Origin: Puniceicoccales bacterium
GTDB lineage: Bacteria; Verrucomicrobiota; Verrucomicrobiia; Opitutales; JAIRKQ01
Assembly: GCA_031268175.1 (NCBI GenBank)
Contig: JAIRXR010000011.1
Coordinates: 149,229 to 213,228 of the forward strand
Direction: 5' to 3'
DNA: 64,000 nt
The notes under the pieces were generated by a model. The model searched no databases. It was given only the letters and a program-made list of their open reading frames with translations, and was not told where the DNA came from. This document shows positions 6,527 through 44,509 of this stretch, in pieces. Each line of letters begins with the position of its first letter. Positions within the stretch are counted from its first letter, which is position 1. The position numbers and the translations under genes are program-made.

Positions 6527-6537
6527 GACAACCTCCA

Positions 6538-7374: not shown

Positions 7375-7517
7375 AGTGCCTTTCTCCGTTCAGCGGGGCC
7401 GCGAACCATTCGCCGCACGAGCATCCTTGGATTTTCTAGTAAAACTAATAATTAGTTTGGACGCTGCATATAAAATCGACATTGACAAGATTTTTTTGAA
7501 AATTTTTCACAGAGTAC

Positions 7518-8513: not shown

Positions 8514-8515
8514 TG

Positions 8516-9685: not shown

Positions 9686-9907
9686 AGAACCTAACTTTAT
9701 CGGAAACCTGTTTTTAAAACCAAAATAAGCAACAATTTTTTAAATTTTTCAAATGCTAAAGACCGCTGGCGGCGCCTTAAATTCTTTACGGCACTTTCAC
9801 TGCGAAAGCCGTCCGCCGTGCGGCTTTGCGCGTGCAAATTTCGTGAGTGCAATTTGCACAAAGAAATCTACTTGACAATCACCATGGCATTTACATGTGT
9901 TCCCACT

Positions 9908-10393: not shown

Positions 10394-10404
10394 CCTGGAG
10401 GCGT

Positions 10405-10944: not shown

Positions 10945-11168
10945 TCTAAAGGGATTGTTTCGCTGTAAATTACGTCTCTCTGTGACGAATGTCATGCACC
11001 ATGGTGTGCGTTTTAGCGTGCGCCGATCAGTCCCAGCGGAAAAATGCAGCGGCGGTTTCGCCAGGCGATACGCTCCGCGCGCCAGAACTTTTAGCTTTCA
11101 TTCGAGTTGTATCACCGCACGCATGCGGACGGCAGGGCATTGCCAGGGACGAATTTTTGCTTTTTCCC

Positions 11169-13106
11169 CTACTCAACGACGAGCATGTCGTTGTTCCGAA
11201 TGCTCTTGCTGTACCGCTGCAGAAATACCTTCATAAATTCCTCGAGCTGTTCCATGCATACCCTGCGAGATTCGCTATTGGCCAAGTTGTTTTTCAAAAG
11301 GAAATCCGATCTCTCGTAAAATCCAACGACTTTCATCCCGTCAAACCTTAGTACAAAATCCTTCACTATCAACTGGTAGATGCCATCGACGTAACTCACT
11401 GCAAACCGAGGGGCGTCCACATCGAACAAACTTGAGCCGAACGAAAAGTAGTCGTGCGAAATTCCTATGAGATCCAAAATTGATGGCATAAGGTCTATTT
11501 GCTGTGCGACTTCATCGGATTTTCCGACCAGCTTCCCGCTCGGATCGAAGAACATCAGAGGAATCGAATAGCCTCCCAGTGTGTTTTTGTAGTACCCTTG
11601 CTGCGGACAGGATATGTGGTCTGCGACCAACACGAATATGGTATTTTTATACCAGTCCATTTTTTCGGCGGTTTCGAAAAATCTCCGCAGCGAATAGTCA
11701 GTGTACGCGATCAGCTCCTGCATCGGTTCCTTCCCACTACCTTTCGGAAATTTGCCGTGCAATCTTTTGGGATATAGAAATGGATGGTGCGACGACAGCG
11801 TGAACAAGACCGAGAAAAATGGTTTTTTGGCCTCATTAACTTTCTTCGCCACGAATTGGAAAAATTCTTCGTCGTAAACGCCCCAGCCGCTAATGTCCAA
11901 AGGAGAGCCATCGTAGTCGCATTCGCAATAGTATTCCTCGATTTGGGCCTTGGTGCGCAGGCTATCAAAGTTGCACGAATTTCTTTTTCCTCCGTAAAAA
12001 AACATGGTCTTGTACCCATCTCTTTGCAGGAGCAAAGGCAAAGATACGATTGCATTCTCGCCGTAAGCGCTGGTTATGTAGGACGAATTGAACAGTCTCG
12101 GAACGCCCAACATGACGGAAGTTAACCCATCTATGGACGTTGCCCCATTGGCAAAGCCGTCAAAAACGTAACTCCTTTCGATCAGCGAATCTAAAAATGG
12201 AGTAAAATGCCCATCTGGGAGCTCCTTAAACTGCCTATCGAGGGCGCCCACGTGCTCCGCCGAAAAACTTTCCAAGATTATTATGAATACGTTTTTTCCC
12301 TTGAAATGCTCACTCAAGGCGCATGGTTTCGCACTTGCGTGTCTCGGAGAAAATTTCACCAATCGGATATCATCCGCTGCAAAGTATCCGCGACGTGGCA
12401 TGTTTGCCTTTTTTCTCGTGTGGAAAACGTCAAACGCCGTGTTTTTCACAAGGCACACAGTGCCGCTGGTCGGCGCATAGATGTTTACATCAACGGGCTT
12501 TAGCGGTTTGCCCTGCAACCCACCGCGAATGCCAATTACCAAAGCAACCATAGACACTAAAAAGTACGCAAAATCACGCCTTCCAATGTTTGCAAATTTT
12601 CCCGTTTGCCTAAATTTAAGCATGCACATGGCGAGCGCACAGATCAAAAATACGCCCACCAACGCAACGTACCAGTAGCGCGTAAGCATGTTAATGTACA
12701 CCGACGAATCTTCAATCAGCATGGCCGCTTGGGCAAATATTTCGCCGCCCATGCGCTTGAACGTGAACGAAAACAACTTGGCGTCAACGACGTTTACCAG
12801 GATGATTAAGAAATTGACAGCAAAAAACCACGTCTGCGCCAGTGCATTAAAAAATTTCCACGACCGTAATTTGGAAGGCAAAGACCAAAATACCCAGATC
12901 GGCGCGTTGAAAATCGCAATCGTTGACGCATCAAACCTCAGGCCGACGAGAAATGCCAGCGCGACGCTGGCAGAGGTTTCGCCTGACAAAAATTCACGAT
13001 TGCACAGGAAAAACAGCAAACGTGCGGCCGAAAAAATAGCCATTAGCGCGGCGAATTTGCACAGCAAAATCACCCAATAATTTTTCTCTTGTCTTTGTTC
13101 CAACAT
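11169..13106 (-). CDS. LTA synthase / phosphoglycerol transferase family membrane sulfatase (alkaline phosphatase superfamily)
   Basis: Five N-terminal TM helices followed by a sulfatase-type domain (VFIIILESFSAEHVG). Length is 645 aa. Confidence 0.75.
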   Translation of the reverse strand: MLEQRQEKNYWVILLCKFAALMAIFSAARLLFFLCNREFLSGETSASVALAFLVGLRFDASTIAIFNAPIWVFWSLPSKLRSWKFFNALAQTWFFAVNFLIILVNVVDAKLFSFTFKRMGGEIFAQAAMLIEDSSVYINMLTRYWYVALVGVFLICALAMCMLKFRQTGKFANIGRRDFAYFLVSMVALVIGIRGGLQGKPLKPVDVNIYAPTSGTVCLVKNTAFDVFHTRKKANMPRRGYFAADDIRLVKFSPRHASAKPCALSEHFKGKNVFIIILESFSAEHVGALDRQFKELPDGHFTPFLDSLIERSYVFDGFANGATSIDGLTSVMLGVPRLFNSSYITSAYGENAIVSLPLLLQRDGYKTMFFYGGKRNSCNFDSLRTKAQIEEYYCECDYDGSPLDISGWGVYDEEFFQFVAKKVNEAKKPFFSVLFTLSSHHPFLYPKRLHGKFPKGSGKEPMQELIAYTDYSLRRFFETAEKMDWYKNTIFVLVADHISCPQQGYYKNTLGGYSIPLMFFDPSGKLVGKSDEVAQQIDLMPSILDLIGISHDYFSFGSSLFDVDAPRFAVSYVDGIYQLIVKDFVLRFDGMKVVGFYERSDFLLKNNLANSESRRVCMEQLEEFMKVFLQRYSKSIRNNDMLVVE

Positions 13107-13141
13107 GTGTGATCTTCGCAGATGGGTTACGCGAAGAGCTA

Positions 13142-13549
13142 ATGAAAATTTTATACGCGCAAAGGAAAATCTGCAGGAAATTGCTCAAAATGTCCATAAT
13201 TCTGGCGCTGAGGTACGTAATCAACCCGCTGAGCTATTCGATCAGCGGCATACGTTTCATGCGCCACGAACGGCCATTTCGCGTGGAATTGGTTTGCGGC
13301 ATAGTGGTTCTTCCCGTGTGCTTTTGGTTCTTTGGGTGGAGTTGGAAGCTTTGGTTGCTCGTACTCAATTTTTTCGTGTTGCTAATCGCGGAATGCCTGA
13401 ACACTGCCATCGAGTCCGTAGTGAATCTCTCCGCTCAAAACAAAAAACTTCCGCTCGCAAAAAAGGCGAAGGACACGGCCAGCGCTGCGGTCTACATCGC
13501 ACTGTGGAACATAGCGATTTTCGGAATTTTCATGCTCACTCTGCGCTAA
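13142..13549 (+). CDS. dgkA: diacylglycerol kinase / undecaprenol kinase family
   Basis: The AECLNTAIESVVNL motif (DgkA catalytic E...N region) and three TM segments. The start is ambiguous (track ORF from 13109). Confidence 0.7.
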   Translation: MKILYAQRKICRKLLKMSIILALRYVINPLSYSISGIRFMRHERPFRVELVCGIVVLPVCFWFFGWSWKLWLLVLNFFVLLIAECLNTAIESVVNLSAQNKKLPLAKKAKDTASAAVYIALWNIAIFGIFMLTLR

Positions 13550-13556
13550 ATTCTCG

Positions 13557-14249
13557 CTATTTTTTTAGCAAAAACTCGTCGATTTTTGACGAAATTATTG
13601 CAATAACCGAGTCCAGTCCGTTGGCCACCGTATCTATTTTGCAAACGCCTTCGCCGCAAATGGTTCTCTTGCCGTCCATTTTGTCGCGTTTGCCGATTGA
13701 ATCGTCCTCATTGTCCTTCTCTCGGCGTAGGAAACGCTTGCCGGCATCAGCTTCTAGGAAAATCTTTAGGTCGGCACCTGGAAGTACGACGCTTGCTATG
13801 TCCCGCCCCTCCATCACTACGCCGTTGAATCCGCGAGTGCGGGCGATTTCCACCTGCAATCTCTGATACGGCAGCAGAAATTTCCTCACCTCATCTACAG
13901 ATGAATACGCCGAGACTGAGTCGTTGACTTCGCGAGCCCGCAGCTCTTTGTCGCCAAAGGTCTCGCCGCTAATCGTAACGCAGGCAACGTTTTTTGAAAT
14001 TTCGGAACCGACGGTGGTTTTGGCCAAAAAATTTCGGATGCCATCCATGTCGCCGCTTCCAATGCCTGCGCGCATTAGTCCTAGCGTGATGGCTCGGTAG
14101 TGAGCTCCCGTAGACACGGCGAGCAGGTTATATTTTTCCGCCAGGCGCAGTGACGTCGACGTCTTGCCGGACGCCGCCGTACCGTCGATCGCTATGACCA
14201 CAAAATTTTCTCCCACGCGGTCCGTGGTAAATTTCACCATTTCGCCCAT
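13557..14249 (-). CDS. cmk: cytidylate kinase
   Basis: IAIDGTAASGKTSTS P-loop and an STGAHYRA lid region. Internal ATG at 14249; the track ORF extends to 14435. Confidence 0.8.
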   Translation of the reverse strand: MGEMVKFTTDRVGENFVVIAIDGTAASGKTSTSLRLAEKYNLLAVSTGAHYRAITLGLMRAGIGSGDMDGIRNFLAKTTVGSEISKNVACVTISGETFGDKELRAREVNDSVSAYSSVDEVRKFLLPYQRLQVEIARTRGFNGVVMEGRDIASVVLPGADLKIFLEADAGKRFLRREKDNEDDSIGKRDKMDGKRTICGEGVCKIDTVANGLDSVIAIISSKIDEFLLKK

Positions 14250-14424
14250 TGCTGTGTCCTGAGAATTAAAAGTTTCGGAAAGATCAAATAAAGAGTTAGA
14301 AAATTTGCCAATATTTTTAATTGCACCTGCACGCGCTAACCTCGCATGCGCACACGACAAACGCCATCGACGTTGGCGAAAATTTTCTCGCAAAAAACTA
14401 TTTCCCGATAAGTATGGGCCGGTC

Positions 14425-16269
14425 ATGTGCAGCATAGTAGGGTATGTCGGGGACAGGGATGTGGCTCAAATTCTGCTCGATGGGTTGGAACGTATGGAAT
14501 ACAGAGGCTACGATTCCGCCGGCATCGCCGGCATCCAGGGCGACGATTTCACAATCGTCAAGCGCCTGGGAAGGGTCAAAAATTTGTCCGATGCCATCGA
14601 TCCATCTATTCACTTTGAAGGCATCGGCATCGGGCATACGCGGTGGTCGACGCACGGCAAGGTTTCAGTAAAAAACGCCCATCCACACGTGAGCTTCGGC
14701 GGTCTTTTCACCATCGTGCACAACGGTGTCATAGAAAACTACGAATCCATAAAAAATTTTCTCAGCGATAGCGGCTACAAATTTTACTCGGAGACGGACA
14801 CGGAAGTCTTGGTAAACCTCATAGAATACCACTTCAACAAAGAGAAAGACTCTGGCAACAAATTTTTGAGGAGCGTGCAAAAGGCATTGCTGCACGTGAG
14901 AGGAACCTACGGCATCGCCGTTCTCTGCAAGCGCAATCCGAAGGAGATGGTGGTGGCTAGAAAAAGCTCTCCGCTGCTGCTCGGCATAGGGGACAATGAA
15001 ATGTTCGTGGCAAGCGACGCCTGCGCCATAGTCGCATACACAAAAAATGTCGTCTACCTGAATGACGGGGAACTGGCCCACATCGCACATTCCGACTTCT
15101 CCATAATCACGATGAGAAACGAGAAAATTGACGCCGTGAAATGCCAACTCGACTGGGAAATCGAAGATGTGTCGCGGGGCGCATACGAGCACTTCATGCT
15201 GAAGGAAATTTGCGAACAGCCGATGGCCTTGCAAAACGCCATGCGCGGGAGATTTTCCGATGACCTCAGCACGGCAAAATTTGGCGGACTGCGCCTGTCG
15301 CCCATGGAACTGCGCCAAGTCGATAGAATTCTGTTTTGCGCCTGTGGCACGGCCTGGCACGCATGCCTAGTCGCCGAATATCTGATGAAAAAGTATGCGA
15401 GAATACCGACGGAAGTGGAATACGCCTCCGAATTTCGCTACGGCAACATCCCCCTCGAAAAAAACACCCTCGTCTTCGTCATCAGCCAATCCGGAGAAAC
15501 GCTCGATTCCTTTGCGGCCATGCAGGAAGCCAAGCGCAAAGGCTACCGAACCCTGGCGATAACCAACGCCGTTGGATCGACCATAGCAAGGGAATCCGAT
15601 GGTGGAATCTACCAGCATTCTGGGCCGGAAATCGGCGTCGCATCGACGAAAGCATTTACGGCACAGGTTTGCGTGGCGGCAATGCTAGCCCTGCTCTTCG
15701 GCCGGCTACGGGACATGGGATTCGACGAGGGGTTCGCATTTGTGCAGGCGCTGCACGAATTGCCGGCAAAAGTCGCCCAAATCGTTGAAAGCAGGGAGGA
15801 AATTCGGCTAATCGCTGAAAAATACGCCCACTGCGAGGACATGCTGTTTCTCGGGCGCCAATCCATGTTTCCCGTCGCCCTCGAAGGCGCGCTAAAACTA
15901 AAGGAAATTTCCTACATTCACGCCGAAGGGTACCCGGCCGCGGAGATGAAGCACGGGCCAATCGCGCTGGTCTCCGAAAAATGCCCGTGCGTGTTTTTGG
16001 CAACGCAGAATGACATTCTGCAGAAAACGATGTCCAACATCCAAGAGGTAAAGGCGCGGAACGCCAGAGTCGTCGCCGTAGTGTCCGAAGGCAGCGACCT
16101 TTCCAGTGGATTCGTCGATGACCTAATACAAATTCCACGCACGCACGATGCCCTGAAACCGATCCTCGCGACGGTGCCGTTGCAACTGTTCGCCTACTAC
16201 ATCGCCAGGGCACGTGGCTGCGACATAGACAAGCCGAGGAACCTTGCCAAATCGGTGACCGTGGAATAA
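14425..16269 (+). CDS. glmS: glutamine--fructose-6-phosphate aminotransferase
   Basis: MCSIVGY N-terminal nucleophile Cys, two SIS domains and a C-terminal ...KSVTVE. Track ORF is 14305..16269 and the true start is the MCSIVGY ATG at 14425. Confidence 0.9.
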   Translation: MCSIVGYVGDRDVAQILLDGLERMEYRGYDSAGIAGIQGDDFTIVKRLGRVKNLSDAIDPSIHFEGIGIGHTRWSTHGKVSVKNAHPHVSFGGLFTIVHNGVIENYESIKNFLSDSGYKFYSETDTEVLVNLIEYHFNKEKDSGNKFLRSVQKALLHVRGTYGIAVLCKRNPKEMVVARKSSPLLLGIGDNEMFVASDACAIVAYTKNVVYLNDGELAHIAHSDFSIITMRNEKIDAVKCQLDWEIEDVSRGAYEHFMLKEICEQPMALQNAMRGRFSDDLSTAKFGGLRLSPMELRQVDRILFCACGTAWHACLVAEYLMKKYARIPTEVEYASEFRYGNIPLEKNTLVFVISQSGETLDSFAAMQEAKRKGYRTLAITNAVGSTIARESDGGIYQHSGPEIGVASTKAFTAQVCVAAMLALLFGRLRDMGFDEGFAFVQALHELPAKVAQIVESREEIRLIAEKYAHCEDMLFLGRQSMFPVALEGALKLKEISYIHAEGYPAAEMKHGPIALVSEKCPCVFLATQNDILQKTMSNIQEVKARNARVVAVVSEGSDLSSGFVDDLIQIPRTHDALKPILATVPLQLFAYYIARARGCDIDKPRNLAKSVTVE

Positions 16270-16273
16270 GTAA

Positions 16274-18859
16274 ATGAAGGATTTTCACAGGCAAATTCTA
16301 CTGCTTGCACTAATTTTTGGTGGCGCGCAGTGTTTCGCCGGTCCCGATGAGGCGCAAAATTTCGCCATCGATGGTGATCTTGTTGCCGTCGAAAATTTGG
16401 CAAGCGGAAAATTTGCGTCCCTGTTAAACAGCGGCAATGGGGCGTATAAAGTTGGATTCTTTTCCCTGGCGAAAAAATTTTTCACCGATGCACTGGCCAT
16501 AAAACCGCTGTCCAATGAGCAAAGGTGCATGGCCTTTTCCGGGCTAATCGAATCATGCCTTGCAACCGGAGATTTTTCCGAGATGGCGAACAAATTTGAC
16601 GCAATTTCGAAGTTGGCAAATGCCGAGGTGCACCCGAAGGCACACGGCCGATTTTTGGTGGACGCAGCCATTGCCGCGTGCCTAAAGAACGATTTCTCGA
16701 TGGCGAACAGGATTTTGTTAAAATCGGACATAAAAAGCTTCGGCGATTTCGAGCTCGCCTGGTACTATGCCGCCAGGAGCGCCATTTTCGCCGCGGCCAT
16801 GAACTTTGAAGAAATGGGGCACAATTTGGAAGAGGCTGAAAAGCACTCCACCTCAACTGATCAAATCGCTCAAATTCAAGCATTTGCCGTCCAATTCATG
16901 CTGCAAACACCGGCGAAATCCAGTGAATTCAGCGGCGTACTGAGCGCGCTCAATGCCCTGTGTAAAAAATACGGATGGCAAAAAAATGGATACCCATTTG
17001 TGCGAGCCTACGCGCTTCTGCTAATCCGTTCCGGAAACGGCAAGGGGGCAAAGGCCGTGCTTGCAGAACACGCGGCGCACGTGGGCGATTCCGATGTGCA
17101 GAATTTGCAATCATTCCGCCTGTGTGAGGCAATTGCCGGTGGTATCCACTCTCCCGATGGCTACGCCATAGTAGGCAATCTACTGCTGTCAGAGGCCAGC
17201 GACGAACTGAAGCAGCAGGCTCTGAAATTATTGACTATGGCGGCGGAAAACAAAAATCAGCGGCTGGAAGCCATAGGCATGCTGTCAGACCAAAGATTTC
17301 AAAAATTGCCGCAGCGCATTAGCCGGCAGATAATGCTGACCAAGATGAGCCTCGCCGTCGACGCTGGCGACATGGCTACGGCGCAGAAGGCATGCGAAGA
17401 GTTCACATCCCAGTTTCCCGGGGATACTTTGGTGAAAAATGCATGGGAAGCCATCGCATACCTGGCGTGGCAGCGAGACCCGAAGGACTACCGCATGGCG
17501 GCGCATTACTTCGGCAAAGTGCGTGACCTTGCGCAGAGCGAGGAGGAAAAAATCCCGACCACCATACAAATGGGCAACGCTTTTTACCTCAGCGAGGCCT
17601 ATGATATCGCTGCCCAGGCCTATGAAGAGGTCCTCAAAACACATTTGAAACTGGACGGCGTGCAACTTGACAGATTGCTGTGCCTACTTATCCAAGCTGA
17701 CATCAAATCGGAAAATTTGGCCGCCGCGGAACGGCATCTGCAAGCTTTCAAAAAAAATCACAACCTACTCACGGAATACCGATGGCACGCCGAATTATCC
17801 TACATAAATGCGCTAATTCACGCAGGTGAAGCCGACAAAGCCACTGACTATCTGTCGCTGCTGTTGGATTCGTACTCGCCCAGCATTCAGCCATTCTATC
17901 TTGTAAAATTCTATTTGCTACAGGCGCATTCGATGTTTTCAAATGGAAAATACCAGCAAGCGCACATCATGGCCTCGCGCATTTGCGAACACTTCCCCCA
18001 CAGGAGCAATTCAGCCGAAATCGCCGAAATCGTCGCCAGGGCGCTGTTCATCAAGGGGACCTGCGAATTGAAGCTTAGGAATGAACGCGATGGCCTGCAA
18101 ACCTTCGCGCTGCTCAGAAAAACCTATGCAAAATTGGATCCGGCGATGCTGTCACACTTCGAAGAGGCGGAATATTTTTATCGCGGCGGTGATGTTTCGG
18201 GAGCATGCCAAACTCTACTTGAATGCGCGAAGGCCGAATGCAAATATTCGCCATTCGCCTACTACAAGTGCGCCGAGTATTACAAATCCCTCGGACTGCA
18301 GAGCTACGGCGATGCGATGGCGTGCCTGTCGGACTTGATCGCGAAATATGGCGACCACGAAATTGCCTATGCAGCGCGGTTGGACATCGCGGATTTACTG
18401 CGCATGAGCGGCAGATTCGGTGACGCGGAGCTGGTATACGAGGAGCTGCTGAAGGATTTTCCGTTCGACCAGAGATACCACTTCACGGAATTTTGCCTCG
18501 CAAAAACGATCTTCGCCCAGAAGGCACGCGGAGAAATTTTCGCCGAACGGGCCCAGGTAGCGCTCGAGCGGCTGTATGCAACGGCCACATTCGACAGATC
18601 GCTGCACATGGAAATTGCCGCGACCTACTGCTTTGTCCTGGATGAAAATTCCAAAGTCGAAGAAATGAAAAGGATCGCCTGGGAAACCTTGCTGGCGACG
18701 GTTTCCAGCGAAAGGGAACTGAGCCACAACGACATCTACTGGCTGTTGCAAATTGCAAATTTGCTCGCCCAATACGAAGCCTGGGCAACCGGCGACGAGA
18801 CCGTTGCTCTGCGCAAAATCGTGGAAAAGCTATGCGCAATCTCCGGAAAGGCGAATTAG
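16274..18859 (+). CDS. large secreted TPR-like repeat protein (hypothetical)
   Basis: 861 aa with an N-terminal signal peptide (ILLLALIFGGAQCFA) and a helical repeat-rich composition. No catalytic motif seen. Confidence 0.6.
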   Translation: MKDFHRQILLLALIFGGAQCFAGPDEAQNFAIDGDLVAVENLASGKFASLLNSGNGAYKVGFFSLAKKFFTDALAIKPLSNEQRCMAFSGLIESCLATGDFSEMANKFDAISKLANAEVHPKAHGRFLVDAAIAACLKNDFSMANRILLKSDIKSFGDFELAWYYAARSAIFAAAMNFEEMGHNLEEAEKHSTSTDQIAQIQAFAVQFMLQTPAKSSEFSGVLSALNALCKKYGWQKNGYPFVRAYALLLIRSGNGKGAKAVLAEHAAHVGDSDVQNLQSFRLCEAIAGGIHSPDGYAIVGNLLLSEASDELKQQALKLLTMAAENKNQRLEAIGMLSDQRFQKLPQRISRQIMLTKMSLAVDAGDMATAQKACEEFTSQFPGDTLVKNAWEAIAYLAWQRDPKDYRMAAHYFGKVRDLAQSEEEKIPTTIQMGNAFYLSEAYDIAAQAYEEVLKTHLKLDGVQLDRLLCLLIQADIKSENLAAAERHLQAFKKNHNLLTEYRWHAELSYINALIHAGEADKATDYLSLLLDSYSPSIQPFYLVKFYLLQAHSMFSNGKYQQAHIMASRICEHFPHRSNSAEIAEIVARALFIKGTCELKLRNERDGLQTFALLRKTYAKLDPAMLSHFEEAEYFYRGGDVSGACQTLLECAKAECKYSPFAYYKCAEYYKSLGLQSYGDAMACLSDLIAKYGDHEIAYAARLDIADLLRMSGRFGDAELVYEELLKDFPFDQRYHFTEFCLAKTIFAQKARGEIFAERAQVALERLYATATFDRSLHMEIAATYCFVLDENSKVEEMKRIAWETLLATVSSERELSHNDIYWLLQIANLLAQYEAWATGDETVALRKIVEKLCAISGKAN

Positions 18860-23759: not shown

Positions 23760-23918
23760 GTGTGTCTTCGGGTCCAAAGTGATGATTAAAAGGAATGAGT
23801 GTGGAGGGCTAAGGCAATGATAAATTCGAAAATTTTCGCTCCGAAATTTTCGAGATTTTTAAAATTTTATTTTTCCATTGAAATTTCGCGCCGTTCCCTC
23901 ATAAATACCGCCGTTTCA

Positions 23919-25439
23919 ATGGCCACGAGTCAACAGGCATCGGCAAATGCGTCAAAAAAAAACGCCATCTCTCCGGCCCGCGCGGAGAATTTTCCCGAGT
24001 GGTATCAGCAAGTAATCAAAGCCGCTGACCTGGCAGACAATAGCCCGGTGCGCGGATGCATGGTCATTCGCCCCTGGGGGTACGCCATCTGGGAGCTGGT
24101 GCAAAAGCGCCTCGACGCAATGTTCAAGGCAATGGGGCACCAAAACGCCTATTTTCCACTGTTCATACCGCTTGGGTACTTCGAAAGGGAAGCAAGGCAC
24201 GTGGAAGGATTTGCCAAGGAATGCGCCATCGTTACCCATACGCGCTTGCAGCCAGACGGCAAAGGTGGCTTGAAGCCAGCCGCAGCGCTGGAAGAACCGC
24301 TGATCGTTCGCCCGACTTCCGAAACCATAATCGGAGAAATGTTTTCAAAGTGGGTGCACTCGTACCGCGATCTGCCGCTGAAAATTAACCAATGGGCGAA
24401 CGTCGTGCGCTGGGAAATGCGCCCGCGAATGTTTTTGCGCACCACAGAATTTCTATGGCAGGAGGGGCATACTGTGCATGCAATCGGCGAAGAAGCCCAA
24501 AAGGAGGCGCTGGACATGCTCGAATGCTATAGAACTTTCGCGGAGAATTACATGGCGATGCCAGTGATCTGCGGGCAAAAATCGGAATCGGAAAAGTTTC
24601 CCGGAGCTGTCTCAACGTTCACGATCGAAGCAATGATGCAGGATGGCAAAGCTTTGCAGGCTGGCACTTCCCACTTTTTGGGGCAAAATTTTGCCAAATC
24701 TTCTGGCATAAAATTTGTCAGCGAAAGTGGACGCGAGGAATTCGGATGGACGACGTCCTGGGGCGTTACAACGCGCCTGATCGGTGGTCTGATTATGACG
24801 CACTCCGATGACGACGGCCTAGTACTTCCGCCGCAGCTGGCGCCGCTGCAGATTGTGATCTTGCCCATTTACAGGGAAGACTCCAAAGCGGAGGTCCTGG
24901 ATTACTGCAAAAATCTATTCTCTGAGCTATCGGAAATCGCATTCGGCGGCGAAAAACTACGTGTGAAAATCGACGATCGCGACATCCGCGGCGGTGAAAA
25001 ATCATGGGAATTCATAAAAAAGGGCGTTCCCATGCGCATCGAAATCGGCCCACGCGACATTCAAAGCGGGACGCTCTGCGTGTGTAGGCGCGATAGATCT
25101 CCGAGCGAAAAGGAATTCGTCGGCAGGAAGGAGTTTGCAAATTCCATCGGCGAAGTGTTGGGCGCCATGCAAAGTACGCTGTTCCAGCGCGCAAAAAAAT
25201 ACCGCGATGAAAATTCGCAGCGCGTGAACTCCGCGGATGAATTATTTGAATTTTTCAATGGCTGTAATCCGGGCTTTGCCTACGCGCACTTGCACTGCGA
25301 CGGCGCCACCGAGGAACGCGTGAAGAAGGATTTTGGAGCGACCATTCGCTGCCTACCGTTCGAAGAAACGGAATCCGGCACTTGCATTTTCACCGGAAAG
25401 TCGAGTGAGCAAAGGGTCATCCTGGCAAGGAGCTACTAG
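23919..25439 (+). CDS. proS: proline--tRNA ligase, archaeal/eukaryote-like type
   Basis: Class II core with a C-terminal Cys-rich extension (HCDGATEE...C) and no bacterial INS editing domain. The ATG at 23919 lies within track ORF 23799..25439. Confidence 0.85.
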   Translation: MATSQQASANASKKNAISPARAENFPEWYQQVIKAADLADNSPVRGCMVIRPWGYAIWELVQKRLDAMFKAMGHQNAYFPLFIPLGYFEREARHVEGFAKECAIVTHTRLQPDGKGGLKPAAALEEPLIVRPTSETIIGEMFSKWVHSYRDLPLKINQWANVVRWEMRPRMFLRTTEFLWQEGHTVHAIGEEAQKEALDMLECYRTFAENYMAMPVICGQKSESEKFPGAVSTFTIEAMMQDGKALQAGTSHFLGQNFAKSSGIKFVSESGREEFGWTTSWGVTTRLIGGLIMTHSDDDGLVLPPQLAPLQIVILPIYREDSKAEVLDYCKNLFSELSEIAFGGEKLRVKIDDRDIRGGEKSWEFIKKGVPMRIEIGPRDIQSGTLCVCRRDRSPSEKEFVGRKEFANSIGEVLGAMQSTLFQRAKKYRDENSQRVNSADELFEFFNGCNPGFAYAHLHCDGATEERVKKDFGATIRCLPFEETESGTCIFTGKSSEQRVILARSY

Positions 25440-25530: not shown

Positions 25531-25607
25531 CGGGGCGTAGCTTAGCCTGGCAGAGCGTTACGTTAGGGACGTAAAGGTCGCTGGTTCAAATCCAGTCGCC
25601 CCGACCA
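25531..25607 (+). tRNA. tRNA-Pro, anticodon apparently AGG
   Basis: 77-nt cloverleaf folded by hand. The acceptor is CGGGGCG/CGCCCCG with a C1:G72 pair and A73 (bacterial tRNA-Pro identity elements). The D loop has GG, the T loop is TTCAAAT, and the anticodon stem TTACG/CGTAA encloses the loop TTAGGGA. CCA is encoded. Confidence 0.7.
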
Positions 25608-25673: not shown

Positions 25674-26987
25674 ATGAGTTTACCCATGTCCACATTTCAG
25701 ACACTGCCGGGATTTAGAGAGTTCTATCCAGGAGACTGTGCCGTCAGAAATTTCATCTTCGACCACTTTCGGCGAACGGCGAAATCGTTTGCCTTCGAGG
25801 AATACGATGCCCCCATCATCGAGCCCATGGAACTGTTCACCGCAAAATCCGGCGATGAAATCGTCTCCCAGCTGTTCAATTTCGAGGACAGGGGCGGGCG
25901 ACAAATTTCAATGCGGCCGGAGCTGACGCCGTCGCTTGTCAAAATGATCGGCAATAGGGCGAATGCTATGAAAAAGCCGATAAAATGGTTCAACATCGGA
26001 GAACAATTCCGCTACGAGCGGCCGCAGAAGGGAAGGCTCCGCTCATTTTACCAATTTAATGCCGATATCATAGGAGACGATTCGCCGGGCGCGGACGCTG
26101 AAATCGTCGCCCTTGCCATTCAAACGCTGCGAAATTTTGCGCTGACGCGGAGCGATTTTCGCGTACGCCTTAGCGATCGCAAGCTATGGGCGGCATTTTT
26201 CGAGTCTCACGGCTTAGATGGCACCGATACCCAGGCCGCGCTGGTCGCAATTGACAAAAGCGAACGCGAAGGCGAGGCAAAGACGCTGGAAGCCGTGGAA
26301 AAAATTTGCCCATCCAACGCCGGGAAAATTTTCGAAGGAATTCAAAGGCTCAAAAATGTGCATTCGCCGCGGGACCTGGAAAAATTCTGCGCAACTTGTG
26401 AAAATTTAGCCGACGCTGCCAGCGGATGCGCCGAGTTTTTTGCACTGCTGAAGCGCATGGATGAGTTTGGCCTGTCGGACTTTGTGACCATTGATTTCGG
26501 CGTAGTCCGCGGCCTGGCGTATTACACGGGGTTCGTCTTCGAAATATTCGAAAATTCCGGCCAATCGCGCGCGCTGGCCGGAGGTGGAAGATACGACAAT
26601 CTGTTTGGGAAGCTCGGCTATTCCGGCCTGCCTGCCGTTGGATTTGCAATCGGTGATGTCACCCTGGGCAACCTCCTAGGCGAAAAAAATCTCATCCCGC
26701 CACTGCCAAGGGAAGTACGCTGCTTCATAGTCTACACCGAGCAGACGGAAAAAATTGCCATGGCGAAAGTGATTGCTCTCCGCGAACGCAACGTTGACGT
26801 TGACTATTGCCTAAGCCCCACAAGCTTTGGCAAACAGCTGAAAGCCGCTTCCCAAGTCGGTGCGAAATTTGCCATAATTTTCGGAGACGAAGAGGTGAAG
26901 GCCAACGGCGTAAAGATCAAAAACATGCTAAGCGGCGAAGAGAAGCCCGTTGAAATCAGCAAACTCGCGGAAGTGATTTCCCAATGA
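25674..26987 (+). CDS. hisS: histidine--tRNA ligase
   Basis: Class II motifs (FRYERPQKGR, GGGRYD), a HisRS-specific arrangement and a C-terminal anticodon-binding domain. Confidence 0.9.
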   Translation: MSLPMSTFQTLPGFREFYPGDCAVRNFIFDHFRRTAKSFAFEEYDAPIIEPMELFTAKSGDEIVSQLFNFEDRGGRQISMRPELTPSLVKMIGNRANAMKKPIKWFNIGEQFRYERPQKGRLRSFYQFNADIIGDDSPGADAEIVALAIQTLRNFALTRSDFRVRLSDRKLWAAFFESHGLDGTDTQAALVAIDKSEREGEAKTLEAVEKICPSNAGKIFEGIQRLKNVHSPRDLEKFCATCENLADAASGCAEFFALLKRMDEFGLSDFVTIDFGVVRGLAYYTGFVFEIFENSGQSRALAGGGRYDNLFGKLGYSGLPAVGFAIGDVTLGNLLGEKNLIPPLPREVRCFIVYTEQTEKIAMAKVIALRERNVDVDYCLSPTSFGKQLKAASQVGAKFAIIFGDEEVKANGVKIKNMLSGEEKPVEISKLAEVISQ

Positions 26988-27322
26988 CAGACTCCGAAGG
27001 CAGCATCGCGTGCGCCACTGAATATTTTTGGGATATTCTAAAGGGTGTCTACGATCCGGAAATCGGCGTAAACATAGTAGACTTGGGGATGGTTTACGCC
27101 GTGGATTTGAAGAGTGCTGACGGCGAAAAATTCGACGTGACCATCGAAATGACGCTGACTTCACCATGGTGCCCACTTGCAGACACCATAGCGGACGAGG
27201 TAAAAGCCGCGATTGGGAACACGGGAAAATGTTCAAATGTGGCCGTAAGCTTTGTCTTCGACCCTCCCTGGCACATCGACATGATAACAACCGAAGGAAA
27301 AATGCAGTTGGGCATATTTTAA
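26984..27322 (+). CDS. DUF59/MIP18-family Fe-S cluster assembly protein (SufT-like)
   Basis: VYDPEIGVNIVDLGMVY and TLTSPWCP motifs typical of the DUF59 family. Length is 112 aa. Confidence 0.65.
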   Translation: MTDSEGSIACATEYFWDILKGVYDPEIGVNIVDLGMVYAVDLKSADGEKFDVTIEMTLTSPWCPLADTIADEVKAAIGNTGKCSNVAVSFVFDPPWHIDMITTEGKMQLGIF

Positions 27323-27405: not shown

Positions 27406-27891
27406 ATGAGCAGCAGTAAAACAAAAGTTGAAGATGCGTTGAGCAATCTGGCGTTGCGGTTGAAGCTGGAGTCGTTGAAACTCAACGATCGCGACGAAAC
27501 CTATTTGCTATTTGATCAAAAATTTCACGTGACGTGTGTGTTTGACGAAGAAAAGGACGAATTCATTCTCACATCCATCGTCGGAGATTTGGCAAAAAAC
27601 TCGATTGAGGCCTACAAAAAGCTACTCAATGACAATTTTTTCTGGGCTGGCACGGCGGGGTCGCGCCTGTTCCTCGATCCCGGGAGCGGCGACGAACCGG
27701 ACACAATCACAATAAAGGAAACCATTCCCGTCGCAATGTTCGACGAGGAGCGGCTCTACGAGCGCATGGAAGATTTTGTGAACGCGGTCGAATATTGGAG
27801 CACTGAATATCCAAAATTGAGCCAGGGCGGTGGTGTGGCGGTGGCAGCTCCGCAGGTGAGCATCTCTGACTTCGGCATGATGAGCGCATAG
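27406..27891 (+). CDS. type III secretion class I chaperone-like protein (CesT/SycE family)
   Basis: 161 aa, acidic. The core ETYLLFDQKFHVTCVFDEEKDEFILTSIVGDL followed by LNDNFFWAGTAGSRLFLDP parallels the CesT pattern ([26 protein letters not shown] ... LNANLWFAENGG). Recognised from memory of the family, not by a search. Confidence 0.55.
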   Translation: MSSSKTKVEDALSNLALRLKLESLKLNDRDETYLLFDQKFHVTCVFDEEKDEFILTSIVGDLAKNSIEAYKKLLNDNFFWAGTAGSRLFLDPGSGDEPDTITIKETIPVAMFDEERLYERMEDFVNAVEYWSTEYPKLSQGGGVAVAAPQVSISDFGMMSA

Positions 27892-27905
27892 GCGTCCAAA
27901 TTTTC

Positions 27906-28505
27906 ATGTGTGCGTTGGTTGATTCGTGGTTGGTCGGCTTGAAGAGGGCTCCTATCTTGCATTCCGCGCGGCTGTTGCTACGCCCGGTGTGCGTCGGCGA
28001 CGTTGTGCACATTCAGAGCAGCATAGACGACAAGCGCGTGTGCGACAATCTGTCCTATGTGCCACACCCATACACAGTGGAAATGGCGGAAACCTGGACG
28101 CGCAACGTAAACTTCGGGATGGCCAATGGGTCCTGCTGCTACTGGACGATATGCGACCAAAAAACCGAAGAATTCATTGGATCGATGGGTCTGAGCATAC
28201 ACAATGAACAGGACGGTTGCGAAATGCACTACTGGGTGAACGCCGACCAGTGGAACAAGGGCTATTGCACTGAGGCCGCCAAGCGCACAATCGTGCACGC
28301 CTTTGAAGATATCGGAATGCACAGGGTATTCATTACGCACCGCGAAAACGGCCTGGCGTCGAAGACGGTGATTAAAAAATGTGGATTTGTCCTAGAGGGT
28401 ATCCTGCGGGACTCGCTGAAGCGCTTCGGCAAATTTGAAAACGTTGCAACATATAGCATGCTGCACGACGAATATCTTGCCATGAAAAAAAATGGTCTAT
28501 ACTAG
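27906..28505 (+). CDS. GNAT family N-acetyltransferase (RimJ/RimL-like)
   Basis: Acetyltransf_3-like layout with LLLRP near the N-terminus and an acetyl-CoA binding region (RVFITHRENGLASKTVIKKCGF). Confidence 0.7.
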   Translation: MCALVDSWLVGLKRAPILHSARLLLRPVCVGDVVHIQSSIDDKRVCDNLSYVPHPYTVEMAETWTRNVNFGMANGSCCYWTICDQKTEEFIGSMGLSIHNEQDGCEMHYWVNADQWNKGYCTEAAKRTIVHAFEDIGMHRVFITHRENGLASKTVIKKCGFVLEGILRDSLKRFGKFENVATYSMLHDEYLAMKKNGLY

Positions 28506-28511: not shown

Positions 28512-29597
28512 ATGAGACTGCTGCACCGATACGTGCTGCGACAGTGGCTGGCTACGTTTCTGTGTACGCACGCCGTGTTGACATGCCTCCTGCTGCTGGA
28601 GGATGTGTACAAAAATCTCGAATACTTTCTGAAAGCCAAGGTAACACTGGCGGCACTGGCGACGTACCATGCGTTTCTGGCGGCGTCGTTTTTTCCACTG
28701 ATTACTCCAGTGGCAATCTTCGTGTCAGTTCTGTTGTCCCTCGGCCAGCTGTATGGAAGGAATGAAATTACGGCGATGAAATCCGTCGGCATACACATTC
28801 TAGAAGTGTGCAAACCGCTTGCCGTGAGCACCGCGGTGCTCGCGGCGATCAATTTAATTTTCGAAGCCGCTGTGATGCCAGCAGCCACCGACTACGTAGC
28901 GGCATTTAGAACACGCACCGACGCAAAAATCGGCTACGCAACGGTTGCCAAGAAAATTGGGTTCTACAATCACCGGGACAACCGAATATGGTGTATGAAA
29001 AGCTTGGACAAACTGTCCTACGAAGCAAAGGATGTCCTCATCAGCTGCTACAACGAAAGCGGCCAAGAGGAGTTGCGCATACATGCGCAGGCGGCAAAGT
29101 TTCTTCCCGTGGAAAACTTTTGGCACTTTCAAAATTGCAGCCTAACGGCGTTCGACACTGGAACAGGATCGCCAAAAAGCGTTGACCTATTTACGGAAAA
29201 GGATTTCGAAAATTTCCGCGAACACCCAAAAATGATCATATCATCGCTGAAAAAAACGAGGGACCTGTCCTTTCACGATGTGAAAACTCTGCTGGAATAC
29301 GCCGGAACGGATTCCGTGGCGAACGCCTTCCGCGTGAGATTCCACGGCACATTCGCCAATGCTGCAAACTGCATAATCGTTATGTTTTTGGCAATTCCAT
29401 TCGCCGTAACCGGTGCAAAAATCAAACCACTCATCCGTACGGCAAAGGCGTGCGTGTTTTTGCTGCTGTTCCTCGTGCTGGACACGCTATTCGCGCTGCT
29501 TGGCAACGGAGGCGTATTGTCCCCAGCGGTTGCCGCCTGGGCGGCGAACGCCGTGATCCTACTTCCCATCGCGGGATTACTCCGCACAGCCATGTAA
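28512..29597 (+). CDS. LPS export ABC transporter permease, LptF/LptG (YjgP/YjgQ) family
   Basis: MRLLHRYVLRQ N-terminus, a layout of six TM helices with a central periplasmic domain, 361 aa. Confidence 0.7.
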   Translation: MRLLHRYVLRQWLATFLCTHAVLTCLLLLEDVYKNLEYFLKAKVTLAALATYHAFLAASFFPLITPVAIFVSVLLSLGQLYGRNEITAMKSVGIHILEVCKPLAVSTAVLAAINLIFEAAVMPAATDYVAAFRTRTDAKIGYATVAKKIGFYNHRDNRIWCMKSLDKLSYEAKDVLISCYNESGQEELRIHAQAAKFLPVENFWHFQNCSLTAFDTGTGSPKSVDLFTEKDFENFREHPKMIISSLKKTRDLSFHDVKTLLEYAGTDSVANAFRVRFHGTFANAANCIIVMFLAIPFAVTGAKIKPLIRTAKACVFLLLFLVLDTLFALLGNGGVLSPAVAAWAANAVILLPIAGLLRTAM

Positions 29598-29610
29598 AAC
29601 CGCCGCAAAA

Positions 29611-30144
29611 ATGCACAGCATCAGCGTCATAGATTTCGAGGGAAACAAGGGGCTGGGAATTTTCGAATTTGGCGTGGTGACGCTGCTGGATTTTGAAATA
29701 ATTTCCACGCGTACGGAATTTTGCCAGGGCACTTTTCACGAGCATTTGGAATATTTTCTTTCACTGCGTAGAACCGGCCTGCTGGGCGCACACTCCGCCC
29801 AGACGGAGGATGGTTTGCTGCGCCATTACTGGGCATCTCCCGGGCTGGTTCCAACTTTTGCCGGCGGCCAAATGGTGCCGTCATGGGGGCCGTGGGCGGA
29901 CACGAAATTGATCCATAGAAAGCTATTTCCGCAGCTACAATCCTACGAATTGGAGGATTTGGTAGCCTCATTTGCGCTGTTCCCGGAATTGGAAAAATTG
30001 GCAAAAAAATACTGCTGCCCAGGCGGCACGAAATTTCACAGTGCCCTATTCGATGCCCTCGCAACTTCATTGCTGCTTCAAAACTTACAAAAGAATTTCG
30101 CCAATGTTTCCCTGGAAACGCTGCTGGCAATTTGCGAAAAATAA
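29611..30144 (+). CDS. DEDDh-family 3'-5' exonuclease (DnaQ-like)
   Basis: An Exo I-like VIDFEGN (DxE) motif and an Exo III-like HSALFDA (HxAxxD) motif. The 3' end of this gene is duplicated at 31375-31479. Confidence 0.55.
   Translation: MHSISVIDFEGNKGLGIFEFGVVTLLDFEIISTRTEFCQGTFHEHLEYFLSLRRTGLLGAHSAQTEDGLLRHYWASPGLVPTFAGGQMVPSWGPWADTKLIHRKLFPQLQSYELEDLVASFALFPELEKLAKKYCCPGGTKFHSALFDALATSLLLQNLQKNFANVSLETLLAICEK
30021..30126 (+). repeat. direct repeat copy A (3' end of the exonuclease gene)
   Basis: About 80% identical to 31375-31479 by manual alignment (cgaaatt(t/c)cacagtgc...aatgttt(c/t)c(c/t)ctggaaa(c/t)gctgct). Looser similarity with an indel continues to about 30165/31515. Confidence 0.7.
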
Positions 30145-30462
30145 TGGCAAAAACTAGTTTTCATTGCCAAGAACCGACCATCGCACTGCATGCGTCGCAT
30201 GGTCGCCAGTGTAACAACAAATTTATCTAACAATTGGAAACGCAAATAGCGCTGTGAGCACATGTCGTGGCGAACCGGTACGTGTTTCCAATTTTACATG
30301 CTAAACGGCGTTGCATATTGCAAAAATCTTAGCTTCGCAGTTGTTCCAAGCAAAAGAAATACCGTTGAGCTTTTATCGTATATAAAAAACAAAACTTATT
30401 TTTTATTGACAATTTAATTTTGACGATGTTTGTCGTTTTACACAGCCAAAGAAAGATTAGTT

Positions 30463-31179
30463 ATGTCAAATGATATTAGAACACTAAGTAACGATATGTC
30501 AAACGCCGTTAACAAAATGATTAACAGCATCCAAGGTAGATTGCACAAAATCGATAGTTTAGGAAAGGAATTTTCTGCTGAAAAAAAGGGAAATGGTCTT
30601 TCTCCGTCTGTATCTAAAACACGTGAAACACCCGCAACAGCGCGAACGTCCGTTTCCAATTCCAATGTACCTTTAAACAAGGGCATTCCACCGAGGCCAA
30701 ACAACAATCCCTCTACGGTTCAAGTCGTAAGACAAGAACCCACAAATTTACCAGCGGCGCGGCGATTGTTGATCGATGAGGAAATAGATAAAAGACTCAT
30801 TGAGTGTAAAAAAGCTTTCGATGAGAATAATGGAAACGGAAATACTGTAATCGAGACTGACACAAAGATCGCCAGTATTGCCTATAATGCGTACTTTGAT
30901 TTACTTACAGAATATACGAAAGATGGAGATGTAATTTATGTCGCAGATGTCGGTATTTTTTATGAAAAAGCTAGAATACTTGGACTTGTGTTCAGCTGCT
31001 ACGCAAACCACTCTATGAAAAACTGTATGAATGCCGTTCTTAGCACTGTAACAACTGGTAAAAAAATTTCACGCGAAATATCGAAATTCTTTAATGTCCC
31101 ACAGAAAGAAGCTGAAAAACAATTAGAAGAGATTTGGCTCGACGAACTGGATGCCTTACTAGACCGCTTAGAAGACTAA
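30463..31179 (+). CDS. hypothetical protein carried on the low-GC insertion, with an S/N/T-rich disordered N-terminal region
   Basis: ATG at 30463 (MSNDIRTLSNDMSNAV...). The track ORF begins at a TTG at 30430. The gene is strongly AT-rich relative to the flanks, has no signal peptide or TM, and shows no recognisable domain. Confidence 0.5.
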   Translation: MSNDIRTLSNDMSNAVNKMINSIQGRLHKIDSLGKEFSAEKKGNGLSPSVSKTRETPATARTSVSNSNVPLNKGIPPRPNNNPSTVQVVRQEPTNLPAARRLLIDEEIDKRLIECKKAFDENNGNGNTVIETDTKIASIAYNAYFDLLTEYTKDGDVIYVADVGIFYEKARILGLVFSCYANHSMKNCMNAVLSTVTTGKKISREISKFFNVPQKEAEKQLEEIWLDELDALLDRLED

Positions 31180-43285: not shown

Positions 43286-44509
43286 ATGAACATTAAAGCT
43301 ATTCATATGGCATCCCTTTCGGGAAAAAATCCATCTCGAAAAATTGATGGCAGAGCGATTATAAGTAGCGCTGGCACACCGGGCCAGGTAAAAGCACCAA
43401 AGGCGGCTGAGGCCAGGAGCATCGTTCCTGCGAAGCCGCAGCAAATTTTCACCGCGCCTGAACAGTTGCTGCAAGAAACGAAACCATTGGCGTGCAGATT
43501 AGCGACTGCGCCGATCACACCTAAATCGACCGCTGCAAAGTCGGACAAATCAAATATTTTACCGCTCAATCCAATTGCAAAGCTCCCGGGAAAGGCACCA
43601 CTTTCGAACCCACCGCAAACGCCAGCCACGCCGAACGACAAACGAAAACCATCGGACGCCGAAATCACCAATAGACTACTTTCGATTAAAAATCCGAAAT
43701 TGTCAATTAGCGCACCGGAACATGGCAAGGATTTTTACTTCGAACAGCAGAGAAATGGCAGCATTTGCGGTCTGTGCGCCGCACGCAACTACGTCGGCGC
43801 ACCGTGTGTCTCGCTGAAAACTTTAAACAATATAAAGAGAAATCACTTCGCCGGGAAAGCCGTACTGGCCACGGCGTGCGACCACATCAACAACGCGCTT
43901 GCGATACTCATGCCGCAGATGAAAAAAATAGTGACCGAAGGCAAACTTTCAAAAGCTCCAAAAAATTCAATGGAATTGCTGGCGGAATTGTCCCGCCTGG
44001 CAACCGCAACTGTCCAGGATGGGGAAAAAGTTATCGACGCCATCAACGCCGTTCTTCCGGCGCTCAACGCGGCTGGACTCGGGCAATCAAAGGCCTACGC
44101 GTCCATGCAAAAGCAAATTTACAGGATACGCAGCGACTGCCTCGACGTATCAGTTGGCGGAAGCGACCCTGCCTTCGTATTGGAAGCACTGCGACAAGTT
44201 GATCCAAATGTCGTCTCCGAACCCTACTACAAGCTGCCCAACGGCGGCAATATTTTCGAGACCCTCGATGCCAAGCACGCGAACCGCGGCATTGTTAGCA
44301 TCCGCGGCCATTTCGTCACCGTGCGAAAGGATGGACGCGGCCAATGGTATATCCTAGATTCTCTGCGGTCAAGCCCAACGCCGATAGCGAAAGGCTCCAA
44401 CGCCTTGCGGGGGTACTCCGGTGTAATTTACTCAACCGAAGACTCAATCGATCCAGTTCTCGTAGACAAACTGATAGCTGCCATGAACGAAGCATCCTCA
44501 GCATTCTAG
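43286..44509 (+). CDS. hypothetical protein with a disordered P/S/K/A-rich N-terminal third and a C-terminal Cys...His...Asp domain resembling a papain-like protease
   Basis: 407 aa with no signal peptide. Residues 1 to about 140 are low-complexity. The region QQRNGSICGLCAARNY resembles a papain/OTU-like Cys box, and IRGHFVTVRKDGRGQWYILDSL supplies His/Asp candidates. A GGAG RBS lies 7 nt before the ATG, which is preceded by a 250-bp AT-rich region. Confidence 0.45.
   Translation: MNIKAIHMASLSGKNPSRKIDGRAIISSAGTPGQVKAPKAAEARSIVPAKPQQIFTAPEQLLQETKPLACRLATAPITPKSTAAKSDKSNILPLNPIAKLPGKAPLSNPPQTPATPNDKRKPSDAEITNRLLSIKNPKLSISAPEHGKDFYFEQQRNGSICGLCAARNYVGAPCVSLKTLNNIKRNHFAGKAVLATACDHINNALAILMPQMKKIVTEGKLSKAPKNSMELLAELSRLATATVQDGEKVIDAINAVLPALNAAGLGQSKAYASMQKQIYRIRSDCLDVSVGGSDPAFVLEALRQVDPNVVSEPYYKLPNGGNIFETLDAKHANRGIVSIRGHFVTVRKDGRGQWYILDSLRSSPTPIAKGSNALRGYSGVIYSTEDSIDPVLVDKLIAAMNEASSAF

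Follow-up and report, generated by a model that had tools for sequence, protein, structure and literature searches.

The 64,000-nt stretch analyzed here (positions 149,229 to 213,228 of contig JAIRXR010000011.1, forward strand; hereafter the window) belongs to a metagenome-assembled genome (MAG) of a Puniceicoccales bacterium (GCA_031268175.1), for which the hypothetical proteins of the window give the locus-tag prefix LBI61. It contains a gene for a CesT-family protein resembling the class I chaperones of type III secretion systems (T3SS), in the order proS, tRNA-Pro, hisS, a DUF59/SufT-like gene, the chaperone gene, a GNAT acetyltransferase gene (Acetyltransf_3), an lptF/G-type permease gene and a weak exonuclease-like open reading frame (ORF) (Table 1). 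A first-pass annotation, made from the sequence alone, had described a 161-aa acidic ORF of CesT/SycE type between hisS, DUF59, GNAT and lptF/G-type genes. The ORF is present, both peptide blocks quoted for it occur in the translation, and Pfam and NCBIfam searches identified all four neighbors as named. With 18.1 kDa, a pI of 4.42 and 29 Asp and Glu vs 16 Lys and Arg residues, the protein is as small (~15–18 kDa) and acidic as a class I chaperone is expected to be. An identical NCBI entry, from a 271,232-bp contig, bears the name [quoted passage not shown], i.e., the gene is already auto-annotated as a T3SS chaperone by the NCBI pipeline, and our family-level result is mostly confirmatory.

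Pfam CesT (PF05932) matched the protein with E = 3.9e-13 and 50 bits at a gathering cutoff of 22, covering model positions 2–118/119, and is its single Pfam family; no NCBIfam model matched it. The PF05932 domain is precomputed in 34 of 34 full-length homologs. The YbjN model (PF10722) yielded no match in the Pfam scan even at E ≤ 1. In the AlphaFold2 (AF2) model the core consists of helix 3–18, strands 31–36, 40–47 and 52–62, helix 67–76, strands 87–91 and 99–108, and helix 114–137, which is the alpha-beta-beta-beta-alpha-beta-beta-alpha fold of ~130 residues that defines class I chaperones. Comparison of this model with chaperone structures recovered the CesT fold (Foldseek E 1e-5 to 3e-6) and placed the protein nearer to secretion chaperones than to YbjN, AmyR or DR_1245. 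By sequence, the nearest solved structure is ExsC (E = 0.04). At the level of family and fold, the gene therefore encodes a genuine CesT-family class I T3SS chaperone-type protein, and the earlier preference for a CesT-type over a YbjN-type protein is supported by sequence and structure alike.

Within the core, the motif DNFFWAGTAG is invariant at all positions save 81 among 25 orthologs, and its W, T and G are kept across the wider subfamily, including the protist homologs discussed below. The acidic helix-3 segment MFDEERLYERMEDFVNAVEYW contains a pattern, E-x-F-V-N-x-x-E-x-W, that is likewise preserved in the wider subfamily. Residues 143–161 follow the core with a predicted local distance difference test score (pLDDT) below 50 in the AF2 model and end in a conserved hydrophobic tip, G-M-[MFIV]-x-A (here GMMSA), of which M158 is nearly invariant and A161 invariant. 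Linker and tip are reminiscent of tethered docking peptides on adaptor proteins; hydrophobic C-terminal tips also end several more distant Verrucomicrobia relatives.

That we are dealing with a real gene under selection is shown by 38 homologs at E ≤ 1e-27, with orthologs in conserved synteny in 21 species-level genomes. The source names among these 38 homologs are all Puniceicoccales or Opitutales MAGs, and reading their isolate codes suggests termite-gut samples. In the 21 species-representative genomes, the order hisS-DUF59-chaperone-GNAT-lptF/G-exonuclease-like ORF is intact as far as the contigs extend: the DUF59 gene lies upstream and lptF/G after the GNAT gene in 21/21 loci, and hisS and the exonuclease-like ORF are found in all 20 loci with sequence reaching that far on the respective side. 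The chaperone core is 64–80% identical to the window copy and is the best-conserved protein of the block in nearly every locus (HisRS 49–66%, DUF59 44–73%, GNAT 59–75%, LptF/G 28–52%, exonuclease-like ORF 39–67%). Compared with the closest genome (L004), its 75% identity stands beside 76% for ProRS and 77% for SerRS, a housekeeping level of conservation. A profile search of 1.84 billion representatives returned the orthologs as one tight cluster at 294 bits, followed by a sharp fall to at most 113 bits. Promoter and terminator scans of 25.3–31.6 kb gave counts equal to those of shuffled controls and thus no evidence on operon structure.

The most constant feature of the locus is the gene that follows. 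The distance from the chaperone stop codon to the first in-frame ATG of the GNAT gene is 1–32 nt in 24 of 25 loci; in the exception, L002, this ATG lies 168 nt downstream and a different start codon is probably in use. The GNAT gene directly follows the chaperone gene in the 21 syntenic loci and also in L025, L026 and L027, where the other neighbors differ. These loci encode the Puniceicoccales relatives P0045 and P0046 (~85 bits, ~29% identical) and share no other neighbor with the window: L025 is flanked by S20 and DUF374, and L026 and L027 by a hexapeptide transferase, with an Acetyltransf_3 GNAT still placed directly after the chaperone. The GNATs of L025 and L026 are ~40% identical to that of the window and diverged in parallel with their chaperones. 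Because the GNAT is kept across differing genomic contexts, the two genes constitute a conserved two-gene module. They are co-oriented and almost certainly co-transcribed. More distant relatives of the chaperone lack the GNAT.

By sequence the partner is an ordinary RimL/YdaF/SpeG-type enzyme with 1nsl as its closest PDB sequence, followed by SpeG enzymes, and it is not a recognized effector type. Its catalytic domain starts near residue 22 and is preceded by a strongly conserved extension of ~20 residues. Judged from this gene arrangement, the GNAT is most likely the direct partner of the chaperone, and it is the only conserved candidate. A literature search found no paper describing a CesT-GNAT pairing. 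Effector-like genes come after the module in both divergent loci; these encode, in L025 (11151–13944), a further GNAT and an ankyrin-repeat protein of 600 aa, and in L026 (10260–19518), proteins of 1917 aa and >1589 aa without a Pfam domain. An apparent chaperone-GNAT fusion, P0037, was rejected as the product of a degraded or erroneous contig, having a scrambled N terminus, substitutions of invariant residues and a stop read-through.

As the first-pass annotation had stated, no apparatus genes were found within the 64 kb: the Pfam scan of the ~55 larger window ORFs detected no T3SS family, and tblastn with the real T3SS proteins of loci L031 and L034 found nothing in the window at E ≤ 0.01. 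The recognizable ORFs of the window are all housekeeping (ClpP, EF-Ts, S2, TsaD, GlmS, SerRS, FeoB, ProRS, iPGM, LpxA-type, LpxB, PBP2, GatB, MreC, MurJ, SecDF, RecJ and others). Some more distant relatives of the chaperone have a different setting. P0102 directly follows sctC within a cluster of sctD, sctF, sctV, HrpJ/TyeA, sycN, yscX and an SseC-type translocon; P0197 follows a secretin near a SycD-like TPR chaperone that is itself followed by two large unknown proteins; and P0198 (Chthoniobacterales) and P0211 (Geminicoccaceae) are encoded among housekeeping genes, each immediately ahead of a 915- or 1054-aa protein without a Pfam domain.

Searching ~400 kb of Puniceicoccales DNA with the T3SS proteins of L031 gave weak needle (SctF) matches at one consistent position in four sister loci (L005, L007, L010 and L013). 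The needle-like ORF aligned with the whole Pfam model T3SS_needle_F below threshold (E = 2e-4) and is immediately followed by a gene for a 143-aa TPR protein, whose three best NCBIfam matches, CdsG (E = 5.4e-9), SctY and LcrH/SycD, are each below the equivalog cutoff. In the four loci the two genes are located between fabV and cmk, with the chaperone ortholog ~6 kb downstream of them. The pair was also seen in L035; it is located at 3689–4456 in L005 and sits between fabV and the downstream neighbor (cmk in L005). The TPR family comprises 33 clusters, and every organism-named cluster is from Puniceicoccales. In locus L034 (GCA_031283585.1, Puniceicoccales), the CdsG-like gene is part of a true T3SS cluster (5524–16564) with the order yscX, SycN-like, sctW/TyeA, sctD, yscE-like, sctF-like, CdsG-like, a second needle-family ORF, and sctJ, K, L, N, O and P; the surrounding housekeeping genes are tsf, rpsB, a tRNA synthetase gene, lptF/G, alr and lpxD. 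The needle-like ORFs found apart from it share homology with the copy in this cluster (E = 6e-14), as do the TPR proteins (E ~1e-34); the needle and CdsG assignments rest on these homologies, on adjacency and on the sub-threshold Pfam and NCBIfam matches. NCBI labels most of the needle-like, CdsG-like and L034-cluster proteins hypothetical. A secretin of L005 and L035 was rejected as T3SS evidence, because it adjoins a GspE-type ATPase and has a GspD N0 domain, and it was read as part of a type II secretion system.

For the MAG of the window, the TPR family provides one member, P0253 ("hypothetical protein LBI61_01525"), which carries the same prefix and is encoded on a 72-kb contig. It is 48% identical (E = 8e-41) to the copy embedded in the L034 cluster, with CdsG as its best NCBIfam match (E = 2e-8). 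The matches listed by a metagenome scan for its locus are weak TPR relatives. A T3SS is thus present in the lineage, while in the genome of the window it is indicated, not proven. The initial expectation of a T3SS encoded elsewhere with scattered accessory genes is accordingly borne out for the lineage, by the L034 cluster and the four sister loci, and for this MAG extends to the accessory gene LBI61_01525. Non-flagellar T3SS have been reported in Verrucomicrobia (PMC3459982), and T3SS loci scattered among housekeeping genes are typical of Chlamydiales (Abby and Rocha 2012, PMC3459982); our literature search found nothing on T3SS in Puniceicoccales.

The chlamydial stand-alone class I chaperones offer a close parallel in gene organization: they likewise occur in hosts from the group of Planctomycetes, Verrucomicrobia and Chlamydiae (PVC) with T3SS genes scattered among housekeeping genes. 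Slc1/CT043 and Mcsc are examples. The needle co-chaperone of our lineage best matches CdsG, the chaperone studied here is conserved and located away from apparatus genes, and a CesT-family protein of Simkania was recovered by the subfamily profile with 78 bits. We know of no GNAT pairing in Chlamydia. CesT of enteropathogenic Escherichia coli (PDB 5wez, 5z38), the founder of PF05932, belongs to the same Pfam family, and both proteins have a C-terminal extension beyond the core, but the two share only 16–18% identity. The CesT tail contains Tyr, in contrast to the Gly/Ser linker and G-M-x-x-A tip, and the gene of the window is not in an island like the locus of enterocyte effacement. [quoted passage not shown] ExsC of Pseudomonas aeruginosa (PDB 3kxy) belongs to a contiguous T3SS locus, where its gene is part of the exs regulatory operon, and acts in the ExsE/ExsC/ExsD/ExsA partner-switching cascade, whereas no equivalents of ExsD, ExsE or ExsA were seen at our locus, where the gene has housekeeping neighbors and a GNAT partner. 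The clients of VecA-VepA (PDB 9ux0) and ShcA-HopA1 (4g6t) have long N-terminal chaperone-binding regions, compared with ~21 residues in the GNAT. Altogether, the gene is a fairly ordinary CesT-family member with an unusual fixed partner; its C-terminal tip, the GNAT pairing and its homologs in protists stand out as potentially novel.

These protist homologs provided the best match of the family profile outside the ortholog cluster, P0039 (113 bits). Its 90% cluster includes KAK8870925.1 from Tritrichomonas musculus, encoded on a 3.8-Mb contig, and the contigs bearing the cluster have 26–29% GC and contain genes for TBP, eukaryotic-type kinases, ankyrin and C2 proteins and an adjacent CesT-kinase fusion. 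The best bacterial matches of P0039 are the ortholog group of the window (40–41% identity, E ~1e-32, vs ≤30% identity for other bacteria), and the relationship is reciprocal. The CesT-kinase fusions P0062 and P0074, on the other hand, are nearest to Puniceicoccales P0045, with P0062 and P0045 being 48% identical and reciprocal best matches; P0062 originates from JGI metagenome 3300042618, the same as Puniceicoccales locus L026. The simplest reading of these similarities is that at least two transfers took place between these bacteria and parabasalid-type protists, probably in the direction from bacterium to protist. Searching the literature, we found no report of CesT-like genes in Trichomonas or of such bacterium-protist sharing. 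As general context for Verrucomicrobia of termite guts, those of the "Nucleococcus cluster" live as symbionts in the nucleus or cytoplasm of gut flagellates (PMC8204192).

Our preferred interpretation, to which we assign a probability of about 0.6, is that the protein is a functional class I secretion chaperone in a Puniceicoccales (Verrucomicrobiota, Opitutia) lineage with a partly dispersed T3SS. By analogy with its solved relatives, it would form a homodimer that binds one or more secretion substrates by an extended segment at their N terminus and presents these clients to the export apparatus. The GNAT could be cargo, bound via its conserved 20-residue N-terminal extension as a minimal targeting region, or it may act on the chaperone or on the chaperone's clients; mycobacterial ESX-1 has an N-acetyltransferase acting on secreted substrates, which is an analogy, not evidence. 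Conservation at housekeeping level, together with the stand-alone location of the gene, is more easily reconciled with a general chaperone, possibly for several cargoes, than with the private chaperone of one fast-evolving effector. Several observations weigh against a role in secretion. For the MAG of the window, no core apparatus gene (sctV, sctN, sctC, sctJ or sctR-U) was seen in the sequence searched, and the sole T3SS link is a single accessory gene that lies on a different contig of the metagenomic bin. The needle and CdsG assignments fall short of curated thresholds; in PDB, a profile built from the four needle-like ORFs matched no needle protein, and the TPR profile found generic TPR proteins only. 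The GNAT has only ~21 residues before its catalytic domain instead of the usual 50–100-residue chaperone-binding region, its N terminus is Leu-rich and not Ser/Thr/Asn-rich, and it is conserved like a housekeeping enzyme, which is atypical of effectors. Finally, the closest homologs outside the lineage occur in parabasalid eukaryotes, which have no T3SS, and so the subfamily can function without one.

The main rival reading is that the chaperone fold works apart from secretion as a dedicated partner of the GNAT, be it as an adaptor presenting a substrate, as an inhibitor or activator, or as an acetylation target; more widely, the CesT fold would then be a module for peptide binding in general, coupled to an enzyme that modifies proteins. 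We consider this possible, if rather unlikely. The adjacency is invariant in three genomic contexts with the same short gap in 24/25 loci, both genes are conserved at housekeeping level, and the compact GNAT with its Leu-rich N terminus leaves no room for a canonical chaperone-binding region. In the closest outside relatives, which are eukaryotic, the domain is found fused to Ser/Thr/Tyr kinases, another kind of protein-modifying enzyme. After Met removal the chaperone would start with Ser or Ala, and these are residues of the type acetylated at N termini by Rim-family enzymes. Against such a function, the lineage has a T3SS, which in sister genomes has needle and co-chaperone genes just 6 kb away from the orthologous module, the more distant relatives in T3SS clusters or ahead of effector-like genes have no GNAT, and sequence and fold are nearer to secretion chaperones than to the non-secretory members of the fold. 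The secretion and non-secretion readings are not mutually exclusive, and a more far-reaching reading, to which we lend limited credence, is that chaperone and GNAT may be a dedicated two-protein module, in which the chaperone fold binds substrates for, or regulates, a protein acetyltransferase as its second subunit; the module might mark or gate secretion substrates or act apart from secretion. The binding module would then have passed between Puniceicoccales and gut protists at least twice and become kinase-fused in the protists. If this is true, bacteria and eukaryotes alike have put a "secretion chaperone" domain to new use as an adaptor of protein-modifying enzymes.

The arrangement of a gene for a small acidic protein just upstream of a GNAT gene, with only a very short gap, also recalls GNAT-type toxin-antitoxin modules (TacAT, AtaRT or KacAT type), with the acidic protein as antitoxin. 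This is highly improbable, since the upstream protein has a CesT fold without an RHH or DUF1778 DNA-binding domain, the GNAT is an Acetyltransf_3 enzyme of RimL/SpeG type, and the locus is a single-copy core locus with fixed synteny in 21 species, neither mobile nor patchy. A YbjN-type stress or sensory regulator, i.e., a member of the widespread non-secretory branch of the fold, has next to no probability in view of the missing PF10722 match and the structural comparison. The first-pass annotation had instead looked for a cognate effector among three nearby ORFs without Pfam assignment (43286–44509, 30463–31179 or 1662–2582). All three have Ser/Thr/Asn/Pro-rich, Leu-poor N termini; the first combines a low-complexity N-terminal region of 140 residues with a Josephin-like deubiquitinase signature; and class IB multi-cargo chaperones need not be encoded beside their clients. 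However, the ORFs are 2.6, 15 and 25 kb distant with unrelated housekeeping genes between, and 30463–31179 is missing from every syntenic locus that spans its position while the chaperone is kept there, which rules it out as the partner behind the conservation of the chaperone. Nothing ties the three to the chaperone, for which the GNAT is the only conserved partner, and we regard a cognate effector among them as improbable.

Two of these ORFs nevertheless have features of their own. LBI61_03880 (30463–31179, also delimited as 30430–31179, + strand) has a GC content of 39% vs 51% for the window, no family match, a Ser/Asn-rich N terminus and a Pro/Ser/Thr/Asn-rich middle region. In the syntenic loci spanning its position, the exonuclease-like ORF directly adjoins an SPFH gene; LBI61_03880 is thus a strain-specific low-GC insertion between the two. 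LBI61_03960 has a Pro/Ala/Ser-rich N-terminal region of 140 residues followed by a Josephin-like domain. Its two best PDB matches are PcJOS (9fn4, E = 0.019) and PaJOS (9g7g, E = 0.042), Pfam Josephin is its top match below threshold (E = 0.007), and its Cys161, His342, Phe343 and Asp358 correspond in the alignment to Cys, His, the aromatic gatekeeper and Asp of the PaJOS catalytic site. PcJOS and PaJOS are structurally characterized bacterial Josephin-like deubiquitinases or clippases (bioRxiv 10.1101/2024.07.24.604956). These matches are weak evidence that LBI61_03960 may be a eukaryote-directed effector of this kind, which fits a genome targeting a eukaryotic host.

Upstream of the conserved block, a tRNA-Pro with the anticodon AGG (loop TTAGGGA, encoded CCA end) directly follows proS. 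A34 tRNAs are uncommon in bacteria apart from tRNA-Arg(ACG), and no tRNA was called anywhere in L002 or L004, the two loci covering proS and hisS. The preceding ProRS bears a ProRS-C_1 C-terminal domain, a mark of the archaeal/eukaryote-like prolyl-tRNA synthetase as opposed to the common bacterial type.

Table 1. Positions of the chaperone gene, its partner and related features (in the window unless a locus is named)
Feature	Position	Strand	Basis or remark
CesT-family class I T3SS chaperone-like gene	27406–27891	+	161 aa, ATG start, NCBI MDR1433441.1
Folded chaperone core, residues 1–142	27406–27831	+	AF2 secondary structure and pLDDT per block
Motif DNFFWAGTAG, residues 76–85	27631–27660	+	Alignments A1, A2
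Acidic helix-3 segment, residues 111–131	27736–27798	+	Alignments A1, A2; near-invariant
Disordered Gly/Ser/Ala-rich linker of variable length and hydrophobic C-terminal tip	27832–27888	+	pLDDT, alignment
Spacer, chaperone stop codon to GNAT start codon, 14 nt	27892–27905	.	25-locus comparison
RimL/YdaF/SpeG-type GNAT acetyltransferase, conserved partner, 199 aa	27906–28505	+	Pfam Acetyltransf_3, E = 2.9e-28
Conserved N-terminal extension of GNAT, MCALVDSWLxGLKxAP	27906–27968	+	25-locus GNAT alignment; Pfam domain 22–162
Upstream co-oriented conserved block: hisS (25674–26987), DUF59/SufT-like (26984–27322)	25674–27322	+	Pfam, NCBIfam
Downstream conserved block: lptF/G-type permease (28512–29597), 177-aa exonuclease-like ORF (29611–30144)	28512–30144	+	Pfam, NCBIfam
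proS (ProRS)	23799–25439	+	ProRS-C_1 domain
tRNA-Pro	25531–25607	+	Anticodon AGG
LBI61_03960, annotated hypothetical, Josephin-like	43286–44509	+	PDB and sub-threshold Pfam matches
Protist CesT homolog	L022 10001–10495 (also L023, L024)		Proteins P0039, P0186
CesT-kinase fusion gene	L022 8025–9602	-	Adjoins protist CesT homolog
Protist-homolog locus	L037 3502–4941		

These results document, in a Puniceicoccales lineage, a T3SS with needle and CdsG-type co-chaperone genes spread between housekeeping genes, extend the chlamydial style of T3SS organization within the PVC group and provide uncultured Puniceicoccales with concrete host-interaction machinery. The chaperone-acetyltransferase pair is a testable lead, pointing to modification of secretion substrates or of the chaperone, or to a GNAT effector with a minimal targeting region. 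The parabasalid relatives make a clean candidate for an exchange of genes across symbiont and host lineages, one that existing genomes can directly test.

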